A stretch of DNA of 64,000 bases from an uncultured virus (IMG/VR IMGVR_UViG_3300032820_000002) (lineage: Duplodnaviria; Heunggongvirae; Uroviricota; Caudoviricetes). Below are positions 14,239-57,998 of this stretch, one piece after another. The DNA lies in IMG/VR virus record IMGVR_UViG_3300032820_000002. One strand, given 5' to 3'. The position numbers were made by a program, and so were the translations under genes. How positions within the stretch are numbered: the stretch's first letter is position 1; the number at the start of each line of letters is the position of its first letter. The notes beneath the pieces were generated by a model. It made no database searches, had not been told where the DNA came from, and saw nothing but the letters and a program-made list of their open reading frames with translations.

Positions 14239-15408
14239 ATGTCAGAACTACTAGAAAGTCGCTGGCAGGATACCAAAGGTGCCCTTCTTGAAGGCCTTAT
14301 AGGCACAAAGAAAGCCGTTATGGCAACTACTCTGGAAAATACTCGTAAGTATTTGTCAGAAGCTGCTACTGGTGGCGCTACTTCTGCCGGAAATGTCGCA
14401 ACTCTTAACAGAGTTATTTTACCCGTTATTAGACGTGTAATGCCAACCGTTATTGCTAACGAATTAGTTGGTGTTCAGCCTATGACAGGTCCTGTGGGAC
14501 AAATCCACACTCTGCGTGTTCGCTATAGCGACACCAATGATAATGTAGTAGCTGGTGAGGAAGCACTTTCCCCATTCAAGATTGCTACAGCATATTCAGG
14601 TACTGGTACAGACCCAGCAGGCGTTGCAGATGCAACGGCTACGTTAGAAGGGTCAGCTGGTCGAAGAATGTCAATCCAGATCATGAAGCAAACTGTTGAA
14701 GCAAAAACTCGTAAGTTGTCAGCTCGCTGGACTTTTGAGGCTGCTCAGGATGCACAATCACAGCATGGTATTGACGTTGAAGCAGAAATTATGGCTGCTT
14801 TAGCACAAGAAATTACCGCTGAAATTGATCAGGAAGTTCTCAATAGCCTAGGTACCCTAGCTGGTACGGCTGCTGAAACATATGACCAAGCTGCTGTAAG
14901 TGGTACTGCTACTTTTGTTGGTGATGAACATGCTGCTTTAGCTGTTCAAATCAATCGCGTTAGCAATTTAATTGCACAACGTACACGTCGCGGTGCAGGT
15001 AACTGGTGTGTTGTTAGCCCATTTGCGTTAACAATTCTACAGTCTGCAACAACTTCAGCTTTTGCACGTACCACAGAAGGTACTTTTGAAGCTCCAACTA
15101 ACACAAAGTTAGTAGGTACTTTGAATAGTGCAATGAAAGTATATGTTAACACATATGCTGCTGATAGTGCCGACGTATTGGTTGGTTATAAAGGTTCAAG
15201 CGAATCTGATGCTGCTGCATTCTATTGCCCATACATCCCATTGATGTCAAGCGGTGTAGTGTTAGATCCTAGTTCATTCGAGCCAGTCGTATCATTTATG
15301 ACACGATATGGTTACGTTGAGCTTTCTAACTCAGCAAGTTCGCTAGGTAATGCTGCTGATTACTTGAGTAAAGTAGCAATTACTAACGCTAACGTTAGCT
15401 TCCAGTAA
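14239..15408 (+). CDS. gp23: Major capsid protein
   Basis: LVGVQPMTGPVGQI, VEAKTRKL.ARWT.EAAQD, AEIDQE, FYCPYIPL, FMTRYG. Confidence 0.97.
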   Translation: MSELLESRWQDTKGALLEGLIGTKKAVMATTLENTRKYLSEAATGGATSAGNVATLNRVILPVIRRVMPTVIANELVGVQPMTGPVGQIHTLRVRYSDTNDNVVAGEEALSPFKIATAYSGTGTDPAGVADATATLEGSAGRRMSIQIMKQTVEAKTRKLSARWTFEAAQDAQSQHGIDVEAEIMAALAQEITAEIDQEVLNSLGTLAGTAAETYDQAAVSGTATFVGDEHAALAVQINRVSNLIAQRTRRGAGNWCVVSPFALTILQSATTSAFARTTEGTFEAPTNTKLVGTLNSAMKVYVNTYAADSADVLVGYKGSSESDAAAFYCPYIPLMSSGVVLDPSSFEPVVSFMTRYGYVELSNSASSLGNAADYLSKVAITNANVSFQ

Positions 15409-15442: not shown

Positions 15443-15470
15443 AAGAGTGACTTCGGTCACTCTTTTTTTT
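15443..15470 (+). terminator. Rho-independent terminator after gp23
   Basis: AAGAGTGAC-TTCG-GTCACTCTT with UUCG loop and T-run. Confidence 0.9.
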
Positions 15471-15490
15471 GGTTTTTTTTCCAAAATAGG

Positions 15491-15519
15491 TTGACAAACT
15501 AATATAGATCATGTATATT
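15491..15519 (+). promoter_or_regulatory. Sigma70-type promoter
   Basis: TTGACA-17 nt-TATATT. Confidence 0.8.
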
Positions 15520-15526
15520 AGTACTT

Positions 15527-15730
15527 GTAATGAGGACGCTCATTACACGGGTTGCAGGGAAGAGGTGTAGTCGAAGCACCGAACCTGGCTTGTCAGGGGT
15601 AGTACCCAGGGGCCTACTCGAAAGAGAACGGTTTCACATTGTGCCTACTAGCACAGGACAAGGCGTTGCCGCAAAATCGAACAAGGGATTTGGACGGCAG
15701 CTGGAGGTAATCCCAAGTCCTTCACCCACC
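15527..15730 (+). ncRNA. Candidate structured ncRNA (about 200 nt), stand-alone transcription unit
   Basis: GC-rich island between a sigma70 promoter and a terminator; multiple hairpins, a closing helix and two potential pseudoknots. Confidence 0.75.
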
Positions 15731-15743
15731 TTTTTTAGAAAGG

Positions 15744-15776
15744 GCCTAGTACTATTTTGTACTAGGCTTTTTCTTT
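15744..15776 (+). terminator. Rho-independent terminator
   Basis: GCCTAGTAC-TATTTT-GTACTAGGC followed by TTTTTCTTT. Confidence 0.85.
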
Positions 15777-15866
15777 ATTCCTTTCTCAAAAAATCATTGC
15801 ATACACATTAGTTCTTTGTATGATAAATACTTTATCAATGAGAGTATACCGCATTAGGATTAAATA

Positions 15867-16904
15867 ATGTCAAAAATTTTAAGAGTAGGAAACGGCGACT
15901 ATAAAATTTTAGTTAAACAAGGAGGTAGTATCACGTTAGATACTACTGATAATGCCCTTGATAAAACCGGAACAGTTGTAGTTACTGGTAATTTAGAAAT
16001 TAAAGGAACAACAACCACTGTTGATTCTACCATAGTTACCATTGCAGATAATATTATTGTTCTTTCTAAAGATAATGTTGCTGCTGGAATTCCTGCTAGT
16101 TTAAATTATAGAAGTGGAATAGAAATAGAAAGAGGAAGTTTATTAAATTCCCGTGTAGTATATGATGAACAAATAAATTGGACAACAGGTGGTTCTTCAG
16201 GTGCAGGAACTTTTACTTTTGAACAAGGAGTTACAACAATTCCTATTAAAGCAAGTGGAATGTTAAATTCAGGTAGTATCTATTTACAACCCATAGGCGG
16301 AACTGTATCTGTAACAAATACTACAAATTATGAAGAACGAGTATATTTTTATGACGGCGGCGTAGTAACTGATCCTGGAGATGGAATTGTTATAAGAGAT
16401 GACGACCATTTACCTAATGCAAAAGGTATAGCAGATTATGTAACTTATATTTTAGCCCAAGGTGCATTTCAAGATAGGATAGAAGAAGGTGCTTATGGGG
16501 ACGAAACATATGTAGAAACTAAAGATTTTAGTGAAACAGGATTAGAAAGTAATGTAGAAATTGGCGTAGATGGTAATGCAGTAGGTAACTTTTATTCTAA
16601 TAGAATAGACTTATTTGATGTAAGAATTAGTGCAAATCGAATCTCATCAACAGCTAGTAACCAAAACTTAATACTAAGTGCTCCTGGTACAGGAACAGTC
16701 CAAATTACAGATATTTTAGAAATGTCAGAAACGCCTCATGCTGATGATGTTTCGATTGATCCTGGAACCCCTTCAGACGGAATAAAAGTTTATTCTAAAA
16801 CACAAGCAGGCGGCGGCACAGGATTATATTTCGCAAATAAAAGTGCAACCGCCGACGAAATAATAAGTAGAAATAGAGCATTAATTTTTAGTATGATATT
16901 CTAA
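15867..16904 (+). CDS. Virion structural protein (fibre/baseplate-associated)
   Basis: Late promoter; VTGNLEIKGTTTTVDS..IADNIIVL and GIEIERG motifs typical of phage fibre proteins. Confidence 0.7.
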   Translation: MSKILRVGNGDYKILVKQGGSITLDTTDNALDKTGTVVVTGNLEIKGTTTTVDSTIVTIADNIIVLSKDNVAAGIPASLNYRSGIEIERGSLLNSRVVYDEQINWTTGGSSGAGTFTFEQGVTTIPIKASGMLNSGSIYLQPIGGTVSVTNTTNYEERVYFYDGGVVTDPGDGIVIRDDDHLPNAKGIADYVTYILAQGAFQDRIEEGAYGDETYVETKDFSETGLESNVEIGVDGNAVGNFYSNRIDLFDVRISANRISSTASNQNLILSAPGTGTVQITDILEMSETPHADDVSIDPGTPSDGIKVYSKTQAGGGTGLYFANKSATADEIISRNRALIFSMIF

Positions 16905-16915
16905 GAGGAAACAAA

Positions 16916-17278
16916 ATGGCAATTATCAATTATCAACTAACCACAGCGCAACTAAATGCAGTGACAGTACCTGCTGCGAAACAGTATGCAATTACAAATA
17001 TAATGGTTTGTAATACATACGATCCAACAGGAGGAAGTCCAGAGCTTCATGATGCAACTTTTACAATGCATTTAATTCCAGATGGTGATTCGTTGACAAA
17101 TGCGGTAACAACTGTTATTAAAGTCCTTTCATTACCTGCAGGAGAAACATTTACATTCGATTCAGAAAAAATCGTTTTAGGAGCAGGAGATATGTTATCT
17201 TTTACTGCTACTTCAGAAACTCCTCCGGGTGCTGGACTTACAGACTTAGCAGTTACAGTTAGTTATTTGGAAGTTTAA
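16916..17278 (+). CDS. Small beta-sandwich virion protein
   Basis: 120 aa; similar in pattern to 22083-22412 and 37131-37448 (I.V.N ... EKIVLGAGD.L). Confidence 0.7.
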   Translation: MAIINYQLTTAQLNAVTVPAAKQYAITNIMVCNTYDPTGGSPELHDATFTMHLIPDGDSLTNAVTTVIKVLSLPAGETFTFDSEKIVLGAGDMLSFTATSETPPGAGLTDLAVTVSYLEV

Positions 17279-41841: not shown

Positions 41842-42789
41842 ATGAGATCAAGGGCTTTTTTTGTGAATGGAGGTTATGGTAGAACTGTCTGTTCTATTCC
41901 CGCATTCGAAGCATATGAAAAGGAATCAGATGATTCTGACTTTATTATAGTTTGTGAAGGAGGTACTGATGCATTCAAGGGACATCCTTTGTTGGATGAT
42001 CGAACATATGACAATTGGCATAAAAATTTATTTAAAGAAAAACTTGTAAATAGAGATATTATTACTACCGAACCTTATCGAATATGGGAATATTATAATC
42101 AAAAATGTAATTTAACACAAGGTTTTGATATACAAATTAATAATAAAGGAATTAGAAACCTTCCTAAACCTAAAATGTATCTTTCAAAAGAAGAATTGTT
42201 AGTTGGTAGACAATTAATTAATCAAGTAAAAGAAAAAGTAAAAAAAGAAAAAATTATTATTATCCAGCCCTTCGGAAGGGGAATTCAGCATATAGATAAT
42301 TCTTTTGTAGATAATACCGGCCGTAGTATTGAATTTAAAGATTTCAAAACATTAATTAAAAAATTACAAGAACACGATTTTGGAGTAATAGTTATGGCTG
42401 AAATGGGTTTTGATTTTTCTAAAGATAATTTCAAAGATGAAGTTGCTATGCCAGAAAGTGTTTCATTACGACACTGGACTGCTGCTATTAAATTTGCTAA
42501 TCATTTTATAGGTTGTGACAGCGTAGGACAACATTTATCATATATAGTTGAGACACCTACAACCGTTATTGTTGGACCTACTTTCCCTATAAATATATCT
42601 TATCCAGATTGCGATTTCTTTAATATTGTTGATTTAGGAATGAAAGGTAGAGTATACGATCCTATTAGAATTATGCCAGATGAAGCTACTGCTAGACATA
42701 ATGAAAATTTAATGACAATGACTTCTGATATTCAAGATTATGTTATTGATAGAGTATTAGGAAAACCGGAAGACGACGATGCCGAATAA
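41842..42789 (+). CDS. Glycosyltransferase, GT9/heptosyltransferase-like
   Basis: GGYGRTVC.IPA, IIIQPFG, W.AAIK.A.HFIGCDSVGQH. Confidence 0.75.
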   Translation: MRSRAFFVNGGYGRTVCSIPAFEAYEKESDDSDFIIVCEGGTDAFKGHPLLDDRTYDNWHKNLFKEKLVNRDIITTEPYRIWEYYNQKCNLTQGFDIQINNKGIRNLPKPKMYLSKEELLVGRQLINQVKEKVKKEKIIIIQPFGRGIQHIDNSFVDNTGRSIEFKDFKTLIKKLQEHDFGVIVMAEMGFDFSKDNFKDEVAMPESVSLRHWTAAIKFANHFIGCDSVGQHLSYIVETPTTVIVGPTFPINISYPDCDFFNIVDLGMKGRVYDPIRIMPDEATARHNENLMTMTSDIQDYVIDRVLGKPEDDDAE

Positions 42790-44710
42790 GCCTGTATGGA
42801 TTGCTGGAATTGCTAGAGGTCACAATGCAGGAATCTGTCTACTTAAAGATGGTGAAATTGTTTTTTCTATCGAAGAAGAACGATTTACACGGACTAAGTA
42901 TGATGGAGGTCCACTTGCTTCTATAGTTAAAGTTTTAGAGTATACTGATAAACTAGATTATCTTGTTGTAGCACATACTACTAGTCTTAGTCAAGCCAAT
43001 GGAGCAATAGAATTTACAGGCGAGAATGTATATACAGGCTTAGCTAGCAAACTAGGATTAATAGATCGAAAAAAGGATTTACAGAATCATCCGCAAGTTG
43101 TAGATTTAAGTCATGTACATCATAAATTGCATGCTGCTTGTGCTTTTTATCGATCAGGATTTGAATCTGCTATTGGAATAGTAGTTGATGGTGCAGGAAC
43201 ATTTATACCATTATCCATTGGAGGCGAGGAAACAATGGCTTTTGAAACTGAAACAATATTTGAATGTTCTTATCCTGGAAATTTTAAAACTTTATTAAGA
43301 CACTTAGGAACTAGGGGTCCTCATCAAGGAGGAATAGTTTTAACACCTGACGGCGAAACTGATCATAAATATCCAACAATAGTATCTGATCGAGCTGGAA
43401 TTACAAAAGTCTATGAAGCTGTAACGCAATATTGTGGGTTTCAAGCCATTGAAGCAGGAAAAACTATGGGTTTATTTCCTTATGGAGTACCTAACGATAA
43501 TATTCCTACGTTGTTTGATAAGGATGTAATAACACCGTTTCCTTTATCAAATAGAAATTTAATAATTCCTACATATCCAAATGCAGCTTGGATAAATGAC
43601 GAGATGTATTCAGAATTAAACGAAAAACAACCAGTTTATAGTCGTGTCCCTCAAGAACAACATCAATTATACGGTACTGCATCAGCAATAACAAGTGGTG
43701 GGTCTGAAGATTTAACAGACGCAACAATCAAAAGTAGCACACAACACAATGACGGTGGACAACCGCTAGGTGAAATTGATGTAACTTTATTACAAAATCG
43801 AAGAGATTTAGCATATGCATGTCAAATACAAACTCAAGAACAGGTAGCTAACATTATTAGATATGCATTTGAAACAACTAAACAAAAAAATATTGTAATT
43901 AGTGGAGGTTATGGTTTAAATTGTGTTGCTAATTATTATTATTTGGATGCATTAAAGGATTTAGATTTAAACATTTATGTAGAACCTGTTTCAAATGATG
44001 CTGGAACTGCAATGGGAGCAGCTTTTCTTTTTCATAAAACTTTAACAAACGATCATGTACCAATGCCTCGGCAAAATATTTTATTCTTAGGACCTAAGTA
44101 TAAATTTAATACACAACAACTTAAATCTATAGCTAAAGAATATAATGCAGATACCGAAACATGTACTAATGAAAAAATTATAGAATTAATTACTTCAAAA
44201 AATATTGTTGCAATTTTTCAAGGCCGAAGTGAAAATGGTCCACGAGCATTGGGGAATCGAAGTCTTATATTTGATCCTACATTTAAGGATGGAAAAGAAC
44301 ATGTTAATCAAGTAAAACGTAGAGAATATTTCCGCCCCTTTGCTGGATCAATTTTAGAAGACGATGTACATGAATGGTTTGATTTACGAGGTATGGAATC
44401 ATCACCTACTATGATGTATGCTGTAAATTGTAAAGAAGGCGTTGCTGAAAAAATTCCTTCAATTATTCATGTTGATGGAACTTGTCGCATTCAAACAGTT
44501 AATAGAGAACAAAATAGTTTATACTACGATATAATAAAATGCTTTAAAGATAAAACAGGCATTCCTATTATTTTTAATACTAGCTTTAATTTAGGAGGAG
44601 AACCTTTAGTAGAAACATTACAAGATGCACTCCGAACACTTCGTGATAGTGATCTTGAATATTTATACTTACCTGAATACGAATTTCTATTTACGGTAAA
44701 GAACGAATAA
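42779..44710 (+). CDS. O-carbamoyltransferase (NodU/CmcH/TobZ family)
   Basis: HNAG, EEERFTR.K, HHKLHA, VVDGAG, AGKTMGL, SGG.GLNC.AN, E.GPRALGNRS, RPFA, NTSFN. Confidence 0.95.
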   Translation: MPNKPVWIAGIARGHNAGICLLKDGEIVFSIEEERFTRTKYDGGPLASIVKVLEYTDKLDYLVVAHTTSLSQANGAIEFTGENVYTGLASKLGLIDRKKDLQNHPQVVDLSHVHHKLHAACAFYRSGFESAIGIVVDGAGTFIPLSIGGEETMAFETETIFECSYPGNFKTLLRHLGTRGPHQGGIVLTPDGETDHKYPTIVSDRAGITKVYEAVTQYCGFQAIEAGKTMGLFPYGVPNDNIPTLFDKDVITPFPLSNRNLIIPTYPNAAWINDEMYSELNEKQPVYSRVPQEQHQLYGTASAITSGGSEDLTDATIKSSTQHNDGGQPLGEIDVTLLQNRRDLAYACQIQTQEQVANIIRYAFETTKQKNIVISGGYGLNCVANYYYLDALKDLDLNIYVEPVSNDAGTAMGAAFLFHKTLTNDHVPMPRQNILFLGPKYKFNTQQLKSIAKEYNADTETCTNEKIIELITSKNIVAIFQGRSENGPRALGNRSLIFDPTFKDGKEHVNQVKRREYFRPFAGSILEDDVHEWFDLRGMESSPTMMYAVNCKEGVAEKIPSIIHVDGTCRIQTVNREQNSLYYDIIKCFKDKTGIPIIFNTSFNLGGEPLVETLQDALRTLRDSDLEYLYLPEYEFLFTVKNE

Positions 44711-52000: not shown

Positions 52001-54195
52001 TTAAAGGTATTGACACTCCTGGATATAATTCAGGTCCAGAAACTGCTACTCCTCCTGAATTTGATTATGAAGTAGTTAATGTTACAGATGAAAGAACATT
52101 TAAAATTAGAGCACAACGTAGATTGGGAGCAGTTGAAGCTGTGTTTGGTTTTAATGCTCAAATGAGTGTAGTACATTGGCATGGTTCTACTGTCCGAGCA
52201 GGAACATATGATGATCAAAATGGAACTTTTTGGGAATATGATGGAACACAACTTTGTGTTGTACAAAGAACTGGCACATTCCAATTAGCAGGAACTGTTG
52301 CTGTAAATGCAGACTCTAATTATGTAACAGGTGTAGGTACAAGATTTATAGATCAATTAGCAACTGGTGATAGAATTATTATTAAAGGAATGACGCACGT
52401 TGTTACTCATGTTAAAAATCAAACAGCAATGTGTATTAATCCAGACTTTAGGGGTGTAGTAAATGTAACAGGCGCAAAAGCAATGCGAGTTACTGATAAA
52501 AGAATTAAACAAAAAGATTTTAACTTAGATACCTTTGACGGCAAAGGCGCTAGTGGTTTTGAATTAGATCCTGCAAGAATGCAAATGATTGGAATACAGT
52601 GGGCCTGGTATGGTGCAGGTAGAATTGATTTTTGGGCCAGAAAAGCAAGTGGTAAAATGATTTCTGCTCATGGTATACGTGGGTCAAATATAAACACAGA
52701 AGCATATATGCGTTCAGGTAACTTACCAGTTCGATATGAAGTAACAAATGAAGGACCTCCAGGGAAACTTTCTGAAGCAATAGATGCTTCGCAAACTACT
52801 ATTAAAATAGAAGATGCTAGCTTCTTTCCTACATCGGGTGTTTTATATATAGACAACGAGATAATTTCTTATGATGGAGTATTTGAAAATTCATTATTAA
52901 ACTGTGTAAGAGGTGCTACATATACAAATTTCCAAGCTGGTGCTAGTCGGAGTTATACTGCGGCAGCAGCTACTACTCATTCAAATAAAACAGGAATAGT
53001 TTTAATATCTAATACTATTACACCGTTAATTAGTCACTGGGGTTCATCTTACTTAATGGACGGCGGCTTTGATTTTGATCGCGGTTATATCTTTTCATAC
53101 GCTGAAACAAATATATCAGTAACAACTGTTAAACAAACAGCATTTCTATTAAGACTTTCTCCTAGTGTATCAAATGCAATTGTTGGTGACTTGGGTGAAA
53201 GAGAGTTACTTAATCGTGCGCAGTTATTACTATATGGTATTGAGGTTACTTCTGATACTGGAACAGGTGGGTTTATTATTGAAGGTGTTATTAACCCTCA
53301 AAACTATCCTATCAACCCAGTAGACATTGGTTGGTCAACTTTATCAGGACTTGCCCAAGGCGGACAACCTAGTTTTGCACAAGTAGCTTCTGGTGGTTCA
53401 GTAGTATGGAGCACAGGTGCTACTCCAACAACTTCAACAGCAACAGCAGTTGCAACTGTTACAGGAGTTTTAGATTCGGGTCAATATACAAACTGGAATG
53501 GATCATATTATGTATATGTAAGTGCTACTGACTATCGGACTACTTTTGGAAGTAATAGTTTAGATATTGTATTAGGTAAAAGCATATCTGGTTCAGGTAT
53601 ACAAACAGGTACTATCATTGATGGTGGATATATTTCAGATTATGATAATTATGGTTACTTTTATCTTAACTTAAGAACAACAGCACAGGTTGCACAAAAT
53701 ACAGCTTCAGCTTTTACTGTTACTAACAATCCAGCACTTACAAATGCTAACAAAGCATTCTTTGATACTACTTCGTTCTTAGCTAGTGGAGCAGCAGGTG
53801 GTACTGCTGTAACAAATGGCGGCAGTGTAACTTTCCCCCCATCTACTTTTGTTAATACTATATCACTTAAAGAATGGGCTGGTACTGAATATTATGAAGT
53901 AACATTTAATAATGCATTTAGTGGTACGCTTGCTAATGGATCTGGAACAGTAGAATTTACATTTGAACAACCTCCATATGCACTACCAGGAGAAACTGTA
54001 TTTTCATTTATTGCTGTTCCAGGCGAACGTTCTACATTAGACTTAGCAGAGATGAAAGAATTAACAAATACTCCTATAGGAGGTCGTGGAACATTTCCAA
54101 ATGGACCTGACGTGCTTGCAATTAACATTTATAAAATTTCAGGTGCGGCAGTTACAGCTAATATTGTTCTTAAATGGGGTGAAGCTCAGGCTTAA
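46084..54195 (+). CDS. Giant virion protein (2703 aa) sharing modules with 28574-37114
   Basis: Shared CERD helical, SDTVNLFG and YPRA modules; DADFEYGLQPTKW; lectin-like C-terminal half. Confidence 0.8.
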   Translation: MAKKQLKDYVFRPGVGATSYVYPDGYSLLNSNKEFIQKESSAWIATQVAAANTYSYAETVLTANKNFIADEAVAWFDANNPGIHNDTRHEKCERDTKYNIDAIVADLHTGGNSETIATVKKYWEGASSQLGAGEVTYALSVNNKVEEIINDYVLTNKAYTTGQSGHGLAASDTVNLFGIKTNCQFGDKVYPQIPFSGMFRITKVPDANTVEFFLPTSEIDHVYVAGGQIFLAAPTNVGGATNISTFEFDNTTGLTTIGSNVHGLAVGDAVQLENITVSCLYGSKVYPDTSTTSGIFVVYDVIDNDTFVIGMDKSKIVHTYVSGGTVQKVNVPVSGAVNITGFIFDRVQGIGRITAAAHGRTVGDMIEVENVNFTCSLGAKTYPVTSNTTAFTVRSQNLSTTTFEVDIGTSGVTQTYVSGGIVVKSGGARLPVSDFNYNTVTGIATITTATSQTINANTVSAATYTPATGVMVLTIGAHSYELNDYIMIAPESLTFTCDLDSHATQHSYPRATGSSAPGGKDYAYNTPVKITATGATTITVNVGISSDTSTHTFVSATAGGISESDSNSAADRVKYLIGIINDVTENGLDAIPTGQIYSVSAATYTPTTGSMQLTIGSHGYQIGDTIRIATESLTFTCAKDGHGTQHSYPRASGSTAPSGADYAYNSLVFITAIGAATITVDVGISSDTSTHTFVSATAGCITSPPATNSVSTATYTPATGEMQLTIGTHSYTVGSSIRIAPASLTFTCALDSHASNHTYPRATGSSAPGGKDYAYNAPLEISVVNGDTITVNVGISSDTSVHTFVSATANCITSDSSAWSNFSYVVATCERDVGYLLDAYLYDLRYGGTAETCKIIGFYWDEEVAQIDGNRLPEINTHEFIRDLINNYVLTNTAYSTTQSTASQVIDLSKTTEANVTSRITSLTGIVINVITNGLTALPGITPTGVGTIRIQGRWDQDNLLLITNTTDNITIYNFVTPELGGICSYKAGGDDTDFPRYLQVTDTITTITLNTDTSTQAGTDDLQIFVEEEKESAIKTDAIERDRVSTALAMLDADFEYGLQPTKWSAIGVLRGYPSIYEIPGTNTEVYNITSDASSGTGGVGQSLVTVTTQGPHGFIETDPVTVKALENSVAGASRAEGSFVITTVPTSTSFTYYSKAKVGTSNGDVLLTSYTQLRKAAFYTGASIGSPTFSVATQGSGGTMTVELDVPSGNTIIPYDGQTPGTGSPLVSASIPTGSQVTGSIEQSAGGGTYLTPEISGDYISGTSSITFVDSTGILVNLGADSGNGTVTYVETVNHPSNTITLTSPLTSSLIGNTTVYSSITGTNVAPIGTNVEVSIDNTATTYSVTGITTPGNDYSVGDNLQIPGTALGGINVVNDLKLRVATLTGASGGIASLDVITPNTGFNGTHTFTDVPAANVGGSGTGAVFDVVYEDTVFTSVTLAASSVDVNFTVNDRLVITGTTLSTAGVDLVNDLVILVTGVGGGGDITGFTFSGLAPHAQQIYNNPQWTTSGGGSQILFEVTRTGQGDSAGSSIGIYSLQFTDYGTGFANSDTIDIAGVELGGDSSATYDLEITVTGVDGSGTITAYSPVGLAVNTDTKLNINANALIGSGVEFTVDIAGGNYTVTGPFTPNGGVGYGVGQELLIAGNLLLGTSPANDLTITVTSVVADDSTGRGEVLTYTSAGSAVTNTGSFTGIQPSTVPGSGSGALFQITRANTVYSITAYENSTGYTIGDRLSIAGTLLGGGTPAHDLILRVTSVAGGNVIDGATIESGVGTPGSIFDLICTFTMTEASSSILVKGASVVFEALASITIDFPYAHGLVPGSSFITTITSDDASNNHTLAAGSTRATNIPTEKQLTYQARSGGVIDVSGGDIIGYVYPRPDSFFVHRPFDGGVMLGTGGPQHAAQAIRQSKKYLRYQSGKGVMYTTGAMFAPSYELKSVTADSLEVNALITVVTDDNDHGVQIGGIIRLKGIDTPGYNSGPETATPPEFDYEVVNVTDERTFKIRAQRRLGAVEAVFGFNAQMSVVHWHGSTVRAGTYDDQNGTFWEYDGTQLCVVQRTGTFQLAGTVAVNADSNYVTGVGTRFIDQLATGDRIIIKGMTHVVTHVKNQTAMCINPDFRGVVNVTGAKAMRVTDKRIKQKDFNLDTFDGKGASGFELDPARMQMIGIQWAWYGAGRIDFWARKASGKMISAHGIRGSNINTEAYMRSGNLPVRYEVTNEGPPGKLSEAIDASQTTIKIEDASFFPTSGVLYIDNEIISYDGVFENSLLNCVRGATYTNFQAGASRSYTAAAATTHSNKTGIVLISNTITPLISHWGSSYLMDGGFDFDRGYIFSYAETNISVTTVKQTAFLLRLSPSVSNAIVGDLGERELLNRAQLLLYGIEVTSDTGTGGFIIEGVINPQNYPINPVDIGWSTLSGLAQGGQPSFAQVASGGSVVWSTGATPTTSTATAVATVTGVLDSGQYTNWNGSYYVYVSATDYRTTFGSNSLDIVLGKSISGSGIQTGTIIDGGYISDYDNYGYFYLNLRTTAQVAQNTASAFTVTNNPALTNANKAFFDTTSFLASGAAGGTAVTNGGSVTFPPSTFVNTISLKEWAGTEYYEVTFNNAFSGTLANGSGTVEFTFEQPPYALPGETVFSFIAVPGERSTLDLAEMKELTNTPIGGRGTFPNGPDVLAINIYKISGAAVTANIVLKWGEAQA

Positions 54196-54821
54196 TTATT
54201 TTGCATCCATTTTGCAAAAGAACTTAAATCATCAAATATTTTAGTTTGCTTTTTTATTTTTTGATACGTATGTCTTTTTAATTTTTCTTCAGTTTCGTTT
54301 CCGTAACCTGTTCGAACAAGAATAGGTTTAGCACCTATTTTTATTGCAGCTTTTAAATCTGTAAGTTTATCTCCTACATAATATCCCTTATTAAATTTAA
54401 TATTAGGATTTTCTTTTTCACAACGTTTAAACATACCAACATTAGGTTTTGCAAATTCATCATCTTTTCTATTACTAGAACTATAATATAATGCATCAAT
54501 ACTAGTACAGCCAGCATTACCTAATAATTGAAACATTTTATCATGTATTCTATCTACATCACGCTGTGACATTATGCCTTGTTCTATTCCGCCCTGGTTA
54601 GTTATAATTACTATTAGAAATCCTAATTTTCTAAGAGAAGAAATAGCTTCTAAACTTCCTTCTATAGGATTAAAATCTTCAGGATTAATAACATATGTTC
54701 CTAAATCCTTATTAATAGTACCGTCTCGATCTATACCAATAACAATATTAGAATTTTTTTGTTTGTCAGATATTAATTCTGGAATATCTGAACTCCATCT
54801 AATTATTGGGGATTCTACCAT
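54192..54821 (-). CDS. gmhB: D-glycero-D-manno-heptose 1,7-bisphosphate phosphatase-like HAD
   Basis: DRDGTIN, ITNQGGI, KPNVGM, VGDK.TD, LVRTGYG; lacks the usual CxH/CxC zinc motif. Confidence 0.85.
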   Translation of the reverse strand: MVESPIIRWSSDIPELISDKQKNSNIVIGIDRDGTINKDLGTYVINPEDFNPIEGSLEAISSLRKLGFLIVIITNQGGIEQGIMSQRDVDRIHDKMFQLLGNAGCTSIDALYYSSSNRKDDEFAKPNVGMFKRCEKENPNIKFNKGYYVGDKLTDLKAAIKIGAKPILVRTGYGNETEEKLKRHTYQKIKKQTKIFDDLSSFAKWMQNN

Positions 54822-54822
54822 T

Positions 54823-55680
54823 TTAGCTATCTCCTTCTATCGAATCGTCTGGATGCGGGTAAGAACAAAAAATTCCACCTACGTGTGCAATATCAGATTC
54901 AAAAGGCTTCCCTGGAAGGGTTTTACTTACTACATTATTTCTAAAAATTTCTGCATCATCTACGGGTTGATAACCTAAATGCGAAACTTTATGATTAGAG
55001 AAAAATGCTTCTTGATTATTAGATATACCATAAACTATAGTAAATCCTACTCTCTCTACTGTTAAACAACGTTCTACTAATTGTACAAGGTCTCTATAAC
55101 TTAGCCAAGTAGCTAAATGTCTTCGATCACTAGGTTCTGGAAAACAAGAATTAATCCGTAAGCAAGCTGACTCTATATTAAATTTATCAAAATATAATTT
55201 AGCTAAATCTTCTACAAAACATTTAGATAATCCATAAAGAGTATCGGGTCTATGTGTTATATCTGTATCAGCACCTGCCTCACGTTGAACAAATCCAACA
55301 GCATGAACAGAACTTGCATAAACGATTCGACTAATACCGTGCTGTCGTGCTGCTTCGTAAATATTATAACCTCCCTTTATTGAAGAATTAAGAATTTCAT
55401 TCCAAGGACGTTCTACAGAAGCTGCTCCAAAATGAACAATAGCATCACAACCTTCTACCACTTTCATTACAGCATCAAAATCACTTAATTCACATTGAAT
55501 GACTTCTTCATTATCATTTGCCGAAGCCATCGACTCTCGGTCTGTTAAACGACATACTTCTGCAAGAGGTGCTAATCCTTTACGTAATTCTTTACCTAGA
55601 TTTCCTGCTGCTCCTGTAATTAATAATCGATTAAATCGAGGCGTTTCACTCAGTTTTAGGAACTTCTTTAACTTCTGCAT
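54823..55680 (-). CDS. NAD-dependent SDR, uronate dehydrogenase-like
   Basis: RLLITGAAGNLG, YASSVHAVG, RPDTLYGLSKCF.E, TWLS..DL, YG.SNN; AGGAG RBS. Confidence 0.75.
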   Translation of the reverse strand: MQKLKKFLKLSETPRFNRLLITGAAGNLGKELRKGLAPLAEVCRLTDRESMASANDNEEVIQCELSDFDAVMKVVEGCDAIVHFGAASVERPWNEILNSSIKGGYNIYEAARQHGISRIVYASSVHAVGFVQREAGADTDITHRPDTLYGLSKCFVEDLAKLYFDKFNIESACLRINSCFPEPSDRRHLATWLSYRDLVQLVERCLTVERVGFTIVYGISNNQEAFFSNHKVSHLGYQPVDDAEIFRNNVVSKTLPGKPFESDIAHVGGIFCSYPHPDDSIEGDS

Positions 55681-56047
55681 TTTGACTATCTCCTGGTACT
55701 ACTCTATAATTGTCTTCAACTGAATCCGGAGTACTTACTTCTGTAATACTACTATTATCTTCTAATGCTTCTAACTGGTGTGGTTGCAGGGGCGGGTTAT
55801 GCCAAACTTGTCCTTCTGTAAGTTCTTGTTGATAAAGAGAGGCATTGGTTGTGTCTATCCATCTAAGAAGAAATTTTCCTGAATTAACAAACCAAGTTTC
55901 ATCTTTTTTACTATGAAAATGCATAGAAAACTTACTTCCTGCTTTTTCAAAAACCATTATTTTACAACAATACAAATCATTAGTTGCCCATATAAGTTCA
56001 TAACCCCAGGCCTTTTTAACGTGTCCTTCTAATCTAGTTTTATCCAA
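55646..56047 (-). CDS. Cupin (sugar isomerase-like)
   Basis: KAWGYELIW, SMHFH..KDETW, P...HQL, EVST..SVEDNYR; TTG start with GGAG RBS. Confidence 0.8.
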   Translation of the reverse strand: MDKTRLEGHVKKAWGYELIWATNDLYCCKIMVFEKAGSKFSMHFHSKKDETWFVNSGKFLLRWIDTTNASLYQQELTEGQVWHNPPLQPHQLEALEDNSSITEVSTPDSVEDNYRVVPGDSQNAEVKEVPKTE

Positions 56048-56066
56048 AATCTATCTCCACACTTAA

Positions 56067-56753
56067 TTAATCAAATTTTATATCAAATACATTCCAACTC
56101 ATTGTAATTCGTTCAACATCGCTGGTAAAAGGATATACTTGATGCCTAAGTTGTGCTGGAAACATATAAAGTTCTCCTGTTACAGGATATTTTCTATATG
56201 CTCCTGCACCCCAAGAACCATGTACCCATTCTAATTGACCCGGGCAACGAGCATTTGACGCCATAGGTACTGTTCTAACTTCTGAAGAAATTTCTTCAGG
56301 AATTTGTACCATAACAATTCCATTAATTACACCAGAATGGCAATGTAAAGGATTAAATTCGTTTGCTCTCATAAAATTAAACCAAGTACCATTTCCTAAA
56401 TGAAACTTAATTTTACTATAATCTGGCAAGGGGTTATTTTTTTCTTTCTCTAATTGAGGAAGCTGCTGTCTTTCCTGTATTTGACAAATTTTAAAATATT
56501 CTTGTATGTGAGGCAATAATATGTCTATCATCTTTTCCCGCATTTCGTCATTTTCAATATCAGATCCTCTTTGCTCTGCAATATTTCCTGATAACATATC
56601 GCCTACATGAAAAGCAGTACGGCTTAATTCTGCATACTCTTGGATAAATTTTAAATCGTTTGCGTTTAACACAGTTTCATATATTGGTGGACTAAATGGT
56701 AATAAAATACTATGTTCTTTTACAAACTCACCGTTTTTATTTTCAATATTCAT
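56067..56753 (-). CDS. 2OG-Fe(II) oxygenase-like protein
   Basis: W.N..RANEFNPLHCH, MFPA.LRH.VYPF...ERITMSWN. Confidence 0.8.
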   Translation of the reverse strand: MNIENKNGEFVKEHSILLPFSPPIYETVLNANDLKFIQEYAELSRTAFHVGDMLSGNIAEQRGSDIENDEMREKMIDILLPHIQEYFKICQIQERQQLPQLEKEKNNPLPDYSKIKFHLGNGTWFNFMRANEFNPLHCHSGVINGIVMVQIPEEISSEVRTVPMASNARCPGQLEWVHGSWGAGAYRKYPVTGELYMFPAQLRHQVYPFTSDVERITMSWNVFDIKFD

Positions 56754-57561
56754 TTATATAATCCTCAATATTAATCCAATTAATATCAATAATAGAATTT
56801 AATTTACTCAAATCTGCATTAGTATATTTTTGATATTGTAATTTTAAATTATCTGGCATAGGTATATATTCTATATCAACTTGATATTTTGATGCTACTG
56901 CTTTTGCAATAGCATAAAAACTTACAGGATTTCCGGTTCCTATATTATATATACCTTCTGAAGTTGTTTGCATCATTTTTTTATGAACTTTACAAACATC
57001 TTCTACACAAATAAAATCTCTAAAATAATTTTCACTATTTTCAAATATTTGAATCACTTTATTTTCTTTTGCTTGATTTATAAATTTTGTATAAGGACTT
57101 GCTTGTTCTTTTTTATGATTTTCATAAGGACCATAAACATTAAAATATCTAAATCCTTGTACAGTAATATCAAATTCACTTAAATTTTGAGTTACAAATC
57201 TATCAAACAAATATTTTGACCAAGCGTACGGTGATTGAGGAAATAACAACCCATCTTCTGTAAAATGATGTGTAGGACCATAAACACTAGCACTCGAAGC
57301 ATATTGAAAATTAATTCCTAAAGTATTACAAACTTGTAACAATCTTAATGAGTATTCATAATTTTGCTCTATAATCTGATCTACATCAGAAAAAGTAGTA
57401 TCACTAATTGCTCCTAAATGTACTACCCAATCATAACTACTAGGATCAGGAATAGTGTTAGGCATAAACTCCCAACCCTCTACTTGATGCCCTTGTTGCA
57501 TAAAATAAGAAGTAAGATTCTGTCCAATAAAACCTTTATGTCCGGTTACTAATACTTTCAT
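56743..57561 (-). CDS. hldD: ADP-L-glycero-D-manno-heptose 6-epimerase
   Basis: TGHKGFIG, HLGAISDT, YASSASVYG, YAWSK, FRYFNVYG..E.HK, RDFI.VED, YQKYT.AD. Confidence 0.85.
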   Translation of the reverse strand: MKVLVTGHKGFIGQNLTSYFMQQGHQVEGWEFMPNTIPDPSSYDWVVHLGAISDTTFSDVDQIIEQNYEYSLRLLQVCNTLGINFQYASSASVYGPTHHFTEDGLLFPQSPYAWSKYLFDRFVTQNLSEFDITVQGFRYFNVYGPYENHKKEQASPYTKFINQAKENKVIQIFENSENYFRDFICVEDVCKVHKKMMQTTSEGIYNIGTGNPVSFYAIAKAVASKYQVDIEYIPMPDNLKLQYQKYTNADLSKLNSIIDINWINIEDYINEY

Positions 57562-57998
57562 TTTTCGTCTAATAAACTAATTGTTTTAAATACTGTTTCT
57601 AATTTTAAAAGATTTACTTTATTTTGTAAAGTATTACGTAAGCCTAAATGTAATGGCTTTGGCCATTTACCAAAACTACACCATGAATATCCGCTATGCT
57701 CACTATTAAGTACTGGAATAAATTCTGACTGAACAACTACTATATAAGTATGAAATTCAAATTGTGCATCATTAGAAACAAATGTTTCTAATGGTAAGGT
57801 TTTTTTAATTTTAGGAAGAGAACCTATTTCTTCCTGAATTTCTCTTTTTAAACCTTCCCACGGTGTTTCAGTATTTTGATTAGTACCACCTACTATACCC
57901 CACATATTTGCTTGTTTTCCATTAGATCTATGTAAAAACAAAAATCTATTTGTGTCAAGGGTATAAAAGAGAGCACCACTACAAACAATATCACTCAT
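57558..57998 (-). CDS. Nudix hydrolase
   Basis: Nudix box GG....TETPWEGLKREIQEEIG. Confidence 0.9.
   Translation of the reverse strand: MSDIVCSGALFYTLDTNRFLFLHRSNGKQANMWGIVGGTNQNTETPWEGLKREIQEEIGSLPKIKKTLPLETFVSNDAQFEFHTYIVVVQSEFIPVLNSEHSGYSWCSFGKWPKPLHLGLRNTLQNKVNLLKLETVFKTISLLDEK

Follow-up and report, generated by a model that had tools for sequence, protein, structure and literature searches.

A manA-family RNA with its own predicted promoter and terminator behind the capsid gene of an uncultured marine jumbo phage

What kind of RNA gene sits between two late structural genes of a large phage, and what might its product do there? The question comes from the window, a 64,000-nucleotide stretch of DNA from an uncultured virus (IMG/VR IMGVR_UViG_3300032820_000002), in which an original prediction made from the letters alone proposed a self-contained structured noncoding RNA gene. 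The preferred reading, with a probability of about 0.6, is an accessory, free manA RNA that would be made by the host polymerase, assemble with itself and act in trans as a decoy or scaffold. The parts of this reading carry different strengths, and the evidence for each is taken up in turn below.

Family and genomic setting

The sole match at cut-off to Rfam in the whole 64-kb window is manA (RF01745) at 15529–15733. It scores 64.6 bits against a gathering cut-off of 55.2 (E 3.7e-14) and covers model positions 1–192, which is the whole model. The stretch is almost certainly a member of the manA family, as the original prediction had guessed. The novelty that the prediction implied does not hold, given that manA has been catalogued since 2010 and cryo-EM structures appear in a 2026 preprint. 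The copy is a new member of an already known family, and since the family is known, this copy alone is no discovery. The RNA body is placed at 15526–15733 on the + strand by the Rfam match and by RNA contigs at 15541–15721 and 15539–15724. When the RNA was compared by blastn with 50,697 phage records, only seven short matches came back, all to the promoter end.

The window spans genes for the head and tail structure of a T4-like jumbo phage; those for the portal, the prohead protease and the major capsid protein lie upstream of the RNA. The immediate upstream neighbor is the T4 gp23-like major capsid protein gene (14239–15408, + strand; phrog_138, E 2.5e-101). Its product shares 72.5% identity with the capsid protein of Vibrio phage 2.275.O and ~68% with those of GAP32 (68.5%), CBB, XaC1 and PA5oct. 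The next gene (15867–16904, + strand) encodes a 345-amino-acid virion structural protein-like product with short matches to phrog_15769 and phrog_697. The source is an uncultured, marine GAP32/XaC1-like jumbo phage, and nearly all metatranscriptomes containing the stretch carry a marine label. Elsewhere in the window (42779–44710 and 54192–57998), carbamoyltransferase, nucleotide-sugar epimerase, 2OG-Fe(II) oxygenase and NUDIX genes lie among the tail genes and likely form a surface or DNA modification cluster.

Fold, loop pairings and self-assembly

The RNA folds far better than chance (z = −5.88, with none of 200 shuffles equally good), the folded stretch including the terminator hairpin. 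Pattern scans for homologues returned at least 120 viral and at least 118 metagenome stretches, with 122 distinct cores, the window included, among the matches listed. In one match set, 6 of 11 were judged by eye not to be manA and were removed, and two agreed with the window letter for letter along the compared stretch. For 66 sequences filtered at 93% identity from the matches listed, the named structure is 86.8% paired, compared with 71.5% when shuffled and 32–54% when slid. Compensatory changes occur at 41 of 56 pairs in these 66 listed sequences versus 34 in shuffles; the structure was named by hand using the Rfam alignment, the counts lean towards it and ignore relatedness among sequences, and P5 and part of P9, being fixed by the search pattern, are uninformative. 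The four closest sequences are 99.1% paired. RNAalifold on a MAFFT alignment recovers no more than 17 pairs, a shortfall caused by two subtypes with unlike 5' ends. The comparison shows that the helices covary among homologues, which supports the core, P2–P9, as the multi-helix manA scaffold.

Like the family as described by Weinberg et al. 2010 (PMC2864571), the window copy has nine helices, a GACG-capped P1, a GGG-GURGUR-CCC P5, a P9 and a marine phage setting. All helices lie on the + strand. P1, the 5' hairpin of the original prediction, is present as a 9-bp stem with a GACG loop at 15526–15547 (Rfam match and folding). The predicted closing helix survives as the 4-bp P2, GGGU/ACCC (15549–52/15724–27), which has support from the Rfam match, comparison and folding. 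Its longer form, CAGGGA/UCCUUC, has a probability of ~0.24 and was rejected; its 3' bases belong to P9, a hairpin (15703–07/15719–23, with L9 at 15708–18) that was overlooked at first and is supported by the Rfam match and comparison. Comparison also places P3a (15555–58/15584–87), P3b (15564–67/15577–80) with L3 at 15568–76, and P4 (15589–94/15657–62), which closes the junction of P5 (15596–98/15605–07), P6 (15609–35, with a GAAA loop at 15620–23) and P7 (15639–44/15651–56). P8a (15665–71/15695–701) is paired in all four close sequences, and P8b carries L8 at 15682–88 in the family register. Compensatory changes are present in P4, P6 and P7.

Most of the internal stems proposed earlier are found in this fold, namely GGTG/CACC, CTC-GAAA-GAG, TGTGC/GCACA and GTTGCCG/CGGCAGC. 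The stem CCTGG/CCAGG has a pairing probability of 0.0, and its bases form P3a and P5 instead. The proposed pseudoknot CUUGUC/GACAAG was rejected, as the Rfam match and comparison make it the ordinary nested helix P4. In homologues of the L044 type, the most frequent subtype, the two ends of the RNA pair with each other (alignment columns 11–18 and 235–243), giving an extra closing helix outside P1/P2 that is lacking in the window's subtype. Many L044-type homologues have a second UACCA in loop L3.

Two pairings between loops were found by comparison. The first, also overlooked in the original prediction, spans 15600–15650 on the + strand and joins UAGUA of L5 (15600–04) with UACUA of L7 (15646–50), a complementarity of 5 bp in the window. 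The pair 15601/15649 is A–U in the window and G–C in the three nearest relatives (L442, L444 and L451); across the 66 sequences from the matches listed, it is GC in 46, AU in 15, GU in 2 and other in 3. Within the cores among the matches listed, an A in L5 goes with a U in L7 in 31 of 34, and a G in L5 goes with C in 63 of 88 and with U in 24 of 88.

The second pairing (15685–15714, + strand) joins GGGA of L8 (15685–88) with UCCC of L9 (15711–14). The GGGATT/AATCCC complementarity raised earlier as a potential pseudoknot is thereby borne out as a real loop–loop pairing. The letters differ from the Rfam consensus, ACUGUA/UACAGU, and are AGGA/UCCU in the three nearest relatives; the letter pairs vary further among phages, e.g., ACAGA/UUCUG, AAUGA/GAUCAUU and CGAGA/UUCUCG. 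When L8 and L9 were permuted among sequences, own loops scored 8.3 versus 6.7 ± 0.2 for permuted ones, and 0 of 2000 permutations scored as high (65 loop types), with loops chosen by automatic folding and some of them mis-picked. The set was chosen without use of L8 or L9 (128 distinct sequences, 65 loop types), and 16 of 215 P3-pattern loci without a detectable P9 were removed before the count. The single-strand fold of the window favors another top of P8 that hides part of L8; the register used for the window comes from comparison, against that fold, and the family register (GAA/UUY top) is retained in all four close sequences. The covariation shows that L5 pairs with L7 and L8 with L9, and it fits pairing within one molecule and between molecules equally well. 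Because the loop letters vary between phages yet stay self-matched, they would point to a role in assembly, not to recognition of a fixed host RNA.

The accessible text of a recent preprint describes five manA variants that form closed oligomers built from a pentamer (Ren et al. 2026, 10.64898/2026.07.01.735769). In this source, manA_A0F1, deposited under PDB 24QD/24QE, forms a pentamer and a 60-mer cage whose pentamer is held by L5–L7' and L8–L9' kissing loops, manA_pho34 forms a decamer, and oligomer size varies by member, from pentamer through octamer and decamer to 60-mer. The cages formed in vitro at ~3 mg/mL RNA and 10 mM Mg, and that text assigns them no biological role. Loop numbering here follows the Rfam helix order and was set beside the description in the preprint; as this order gives the same two complementary loop pairs, the gene is read as a self-assembling manA RNA. 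The window RNA shares with manA_A0F1 the complementary L5–L7 and L8–L9 loops and the GAAA loop on P6. It differs from the cages described there in having no clear L3–L8 complement by eye and in being known from sequence alone. The ROOL and GOLLD RNAs are also RNA-only multimers (10.64898/2026.07.01.735769), but they are several hundred nucleotides long with another fold, and neither has an Rfam match in the window.

In the proposed mechanism, host sigma70 polymerase would start at about 15526 and stop at the terminator at about 15775. The transcript would be ~250 nt long, of which ~205 nt form a folded core. The core folds into the nine-helix manA scaffold, and L5–L7 and L8–L9 may then connect copies as a pentamer and as closed oligomers, by analogy with the five members seen by cryo-EM. 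On the same analogy, the odds slightly favor an oligomer in the cell. More tentatively, the likeliest task of the RNA would be to engage a host factor in trans during infection, serving as a multivalent and stable scaffold or decoy, with a nuclease, an RNA-binding defense factor or a translation factor as candidates. The original prediction had floated a decoy or an anti-defense RNA, and both stay candidate functions. A further step seems doubtful, namely that an early free transcript builds RNA-only closed particles in the cell, with the L8/L9 code allowing self-sorting, and that these sequester or protect cargo or a host defense factor. If true, an RNA-only cage would for the first time have a biological role, and manA would be reclassified from a leader to a trans-acting RNA.

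A monomeric free RNA is an unlikely alternative to self-assembly, though the equal fit of the covariation to within-molecule pairing speaks for it. Both loop pairings would then be intramolecular pseudoknots, and the cages would be a by-product of high concentration in vitro. A possible pseudoknot was drawn by Weinberg et al. 2010 (PMC2864571), and the differing oligomer sizes of family members (10.64898/2026.07.01.735769) also fit a monomer. Against it, every one of the five variants in the preprint assembled into defined closed oligomers, and in both of those modelled in detail L5–L7 and L8–L9 act between molecules (10.64898/2026.07.01.735769).

Transcription and the leader question

The signals that would make the RNA an independent gene were largely as the original prediction placed them. 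An intrinsic terminator of the capsid transcript lies upstream (15443–15472, + strand), with a 9-pair stem at 15443–15464 followed by a T run, and would insulate the RNA gene from upstream late transcription. A sigma70-type promoter, TTGACA-17-TATATT (15491–15519, + strand), has 11 of 12 consensus matches and a predicted transcription start at ~15526, and its position is conserved among homologues. The surrounding 3.5-kb region holds 7 promoter-like sites against 9.8 expected by chance, and the one before the RNA scores best. A sigma70-type promoter with at least 10 of 12 matches stands at the expected place in 102 of 114 homologues from the matches listed (shuffles: mean 5.6, maximum 10), and a strong promoter is present in 176 of 207 of the pooled set, again among the matches listed. 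The RNA gene's own terminator follows (15737–15782, + strand), a 16-pair stem at 15737–15774 with a T run. A terminator lies 3' of manA in 98 of 119 homologues among the matches listed, versus 13–20 in shuffles, and in only 76 of 129 of a set selected on P3 alone. With promoter and terminator kept among homologues and helices that covary, the claim of a self-contained structured RNA gene stands.

The next structural gene would have a separate promoter. A late-type box, GATAAATA (15822–15829, + strand), is a putative promoter for it, judged from TAAATA statistics: TAAATA stands within 70 nt of 14 of 38 ORF starts, with ~0.05 expected per start. A TAAATA late box lies downstream of manA in 95 of 117 homologues among the matches listed. 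From promoter type alone, the RNA would be expressed early. By strict scan, the only other strong sigma70-type site on the + strand of the window is TTGACT-17-TATAAT at 55682–55710, which borders minus-strand sugar-epimerase genes.

Four metatranscriptome runs were compared with the locus as contigs, and two of them, from different studies, hold a contig wholly inside the RNA. One (15541–15721) has no differences from the window; the other (15539–15724) has three, one of which turns a U–A pair of P6 into U–G and two of which fall in an internal loop. Both of these runs lack cover in the 100-nt bin before the RNA and beyond 15800. The mapping suggested with the original prediction thus gave contigs confined to the RNA body in half of the runs, and the other two (X14 and X19) do not cover the RNA; 15801–17200 is covered by none of the four, and these gaps do not argue for silence. 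As contigs without a DNA control, those of the RNA body are a weak hint of a discrete RNA.

Independent transcription of the manA gene is strongly implied by this layout, and the manA of the window is very probably a free RNA and not a leader. The family is catalogued otherwise, as an element of 5' UTRs that regulates metabolic genes nearby in cis: in Weinberg et al. 2010 (PMC2864571), manA occurs in potential 5' UTRs and is marked 'Y' for cis-regulatory and 'y' for riboswitch. Rfam likewise types it as cis-regulatory, a label that is an annotation of the family and no part of the model score. The window copy, set between late structural genes of a jumbo phage, carries a promoter and a terminator of its own, and it is not placed as a 5' UTR, given its own terminator, the separate late box and its inverted relatives. 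L442 and L444, two of the nearest three relatives, carry manA inverted in the same slot, where it faces the 3' end of the capsid gene and has its own promoter and terminator. Among the matches listed, only these two are inverted, and two overlapping sets hold 63 and 55 copies on the same strand.

A cis-regulatory leader, either riboswitch or attenuator, whose fold would sense a ligand and set read-through into the next gene, is accordingly improbable here, despite the published classing. The inverted copies have nothing to regulate, and the genes downstream of manA are unrelated across phages. Some copies lie between tRNAs. In cyanophage S-CREM1, manA begins 2 nt past tRNA-Leu and touches tRNA-Asn, and among the listed homologues without a strong promoter, 5 of 31 have a tRNA directly upstream. 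Four homologues (L357, L371, L479 and L289) have manA inside tRNA arrays. Two others have it adjoining a permuted tmRNA (L459 459–1003 and L520 235–783), on the same strand in L459. ROOL and GOLLD RNAs of phages are frequently found in a tRNA neighborhood.

The 3' side of manA bears on the leader from both directions. Within the pooled homologue set (n = 219, matches listed), the feature downstream could be classed for 178 of the matches listed: a terminator in 124, a late box in 17, a tRNA in 2, a close ORF in 8 and none in 27, where a close ORF is one ≤45 nt away without a terminator, tRNA or late box before it. These eight favor a leader, as does Pelagibacter phage Mosig, which has a promoter, no terminator and a rubrerythrin gene starting ~25 nt downstream. 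In 93 of 93 cases, the terminator begins at least 16 nt beyond the conserved core and does not overlap it, and no expression platform overlapping or competing with an aptamer was found. The 5' arm of a terminator pairs a little more stably with the RNA it belongs to than with other RNAs (−8.93 versus −8.59 ± 0.17 kcal/mol), as a leader would have it, but the difference of 0.3 is small and may be due to composition.

The lack of a terminator in Mosig and its presence in only part of the P3-selected set leave room for a leader role in some phages, and manA may act as a leader there. For the present phage group at least, the evidence suggests that the cis-regulatory label is wrong. A literature search, thin on subscription journals, found no paper on a stand-alone manA gene in jumbo phages. 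The analysis adds genomic evidence that a riboswitch candidate is laid out as an independent gene in well over 100 related phage sequences, one that can flip orientation and that retains the loop pairings by which cages form in vitro. Mosig and S-CREM1 are cultured carriers, open to tests of the transcript and of its oligomeric state. The Mosig copy (L321 4001–4211; MT647606.1 108164–108371, minus strand) is unannotated, scores 64 bits, has a sigma70-type promoter and lies upstream of rubrerythrin and gp32. In six homologues (L338, L351, L360, L380, L385 and L466), a common conserved stretch directly 3' of manA replaces the terminator; it is possibly an uncatalogued RNA, and L338 gave no further Rfam match at E 0.01.

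The slot behind the capsid gene

Retrieval by capsid similarity gave 80 loci, of which 42 span the full interval from the capsid gene to the next conserved gene. Copies of manA are present in at least 15 of these 42 complete intervals. A model built for this purpose (R1) found 13 and the pattern found 15; L028 and L048 match Rfam manA at 43.7 and 46.3 bits, below the cut-off. As R1 missed diverged copies, 15 of 42 is a lower bound. No match to manA came from the records of three cultured relatives that share the head module, and the controls S-CREM1 and Mosig were matched. Of the 73 listed homologues with flank enough to judge, 58 have a homologue of the capsid gene ahead of manA in the same orientation; manA also occurs at other sites (L451, Mosig and S-CREM1). 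The manA RNA is accessory.

This distribution bears on a packaging or virion RNA like the pRNA of phi29, in which a pentameric ring of kissing loops would sit at the portal or the capsid vertices. The phi29 pRNA is also phage-made, of similar size (174 nt) and forms rings through loop–loop pairing (PMC5066667), a ring that the pentamer building block of manA resembles, and the capsid gene is the common upstream neighbor. Such a role is nonetheless highly improbable. The pRNA is essential for packaging (PMC5066667), and the presence of manA at the slot in 15 of 42 relatives makes an essential packaging role unlikely; the RNA is also missing from the three cultured relatives that share the head module, changes site, shares its slot with other accessory RNAs and small genes, has a promoter that is not of the late type and, in the window, lacks an Rfam match to pRNA.

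A small protein gene or a self-cleaving ribozyme is scarcely credible: the ATG-started 93-codon frame that covers the RNA (15530–15811, + strand) has no PHROG match, is open in only 6 of 115 homologues among the matches listed, the window included, and has a stop codon before the homologous stretch in all three nearest relatives, so that a frame so rare and so broken is a chance frame and not a gene, and the ribozyme suggested earlier has no support from the Rfam scan of the window, in which no ribozyme family reaches cut-off. The conservation of this frame, named with the original prediction as what would speak against an RNA gene, is absent.

The preferred accessory RNA has company in the post-capsid slot. 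Matches to the glutamine riboswitch (glnA) occur there at L003 4234–4281, L008 3972–4021, L038 4666–4713, L047 4233–4280 and L022 4236–4282, and the match precedes a small ORF in the three loci inspected. With glnA in the same slot as manA, the slot appears to be a hotspot for accessory RNAs. Many relatives (14 of 20 loci; L003 4702–4784, L072 4550–4633, L011 3354–3438 and others) carry the Rfam family freshwater-2 in the stretch that follows the capsid gene. In the five relatives inspected, it follows a TAAATA late box and precedes a start codon, and it looks like the leader of a late gene; a literature search on it found nothing. In five short intervals (L011, L037, L054, L068 and L080), freshwater-2 starts ~90–100 nt past the capsid stop, so close that there is no room for manA before it. 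The window has neither freshwater-2 nor the late gene behind it. Two identical manA copies (L319 2985–3202 and L320 2921–3138) occur in one metagenome-assembled bacterial genome and are possibly on phage contigs binned with it.
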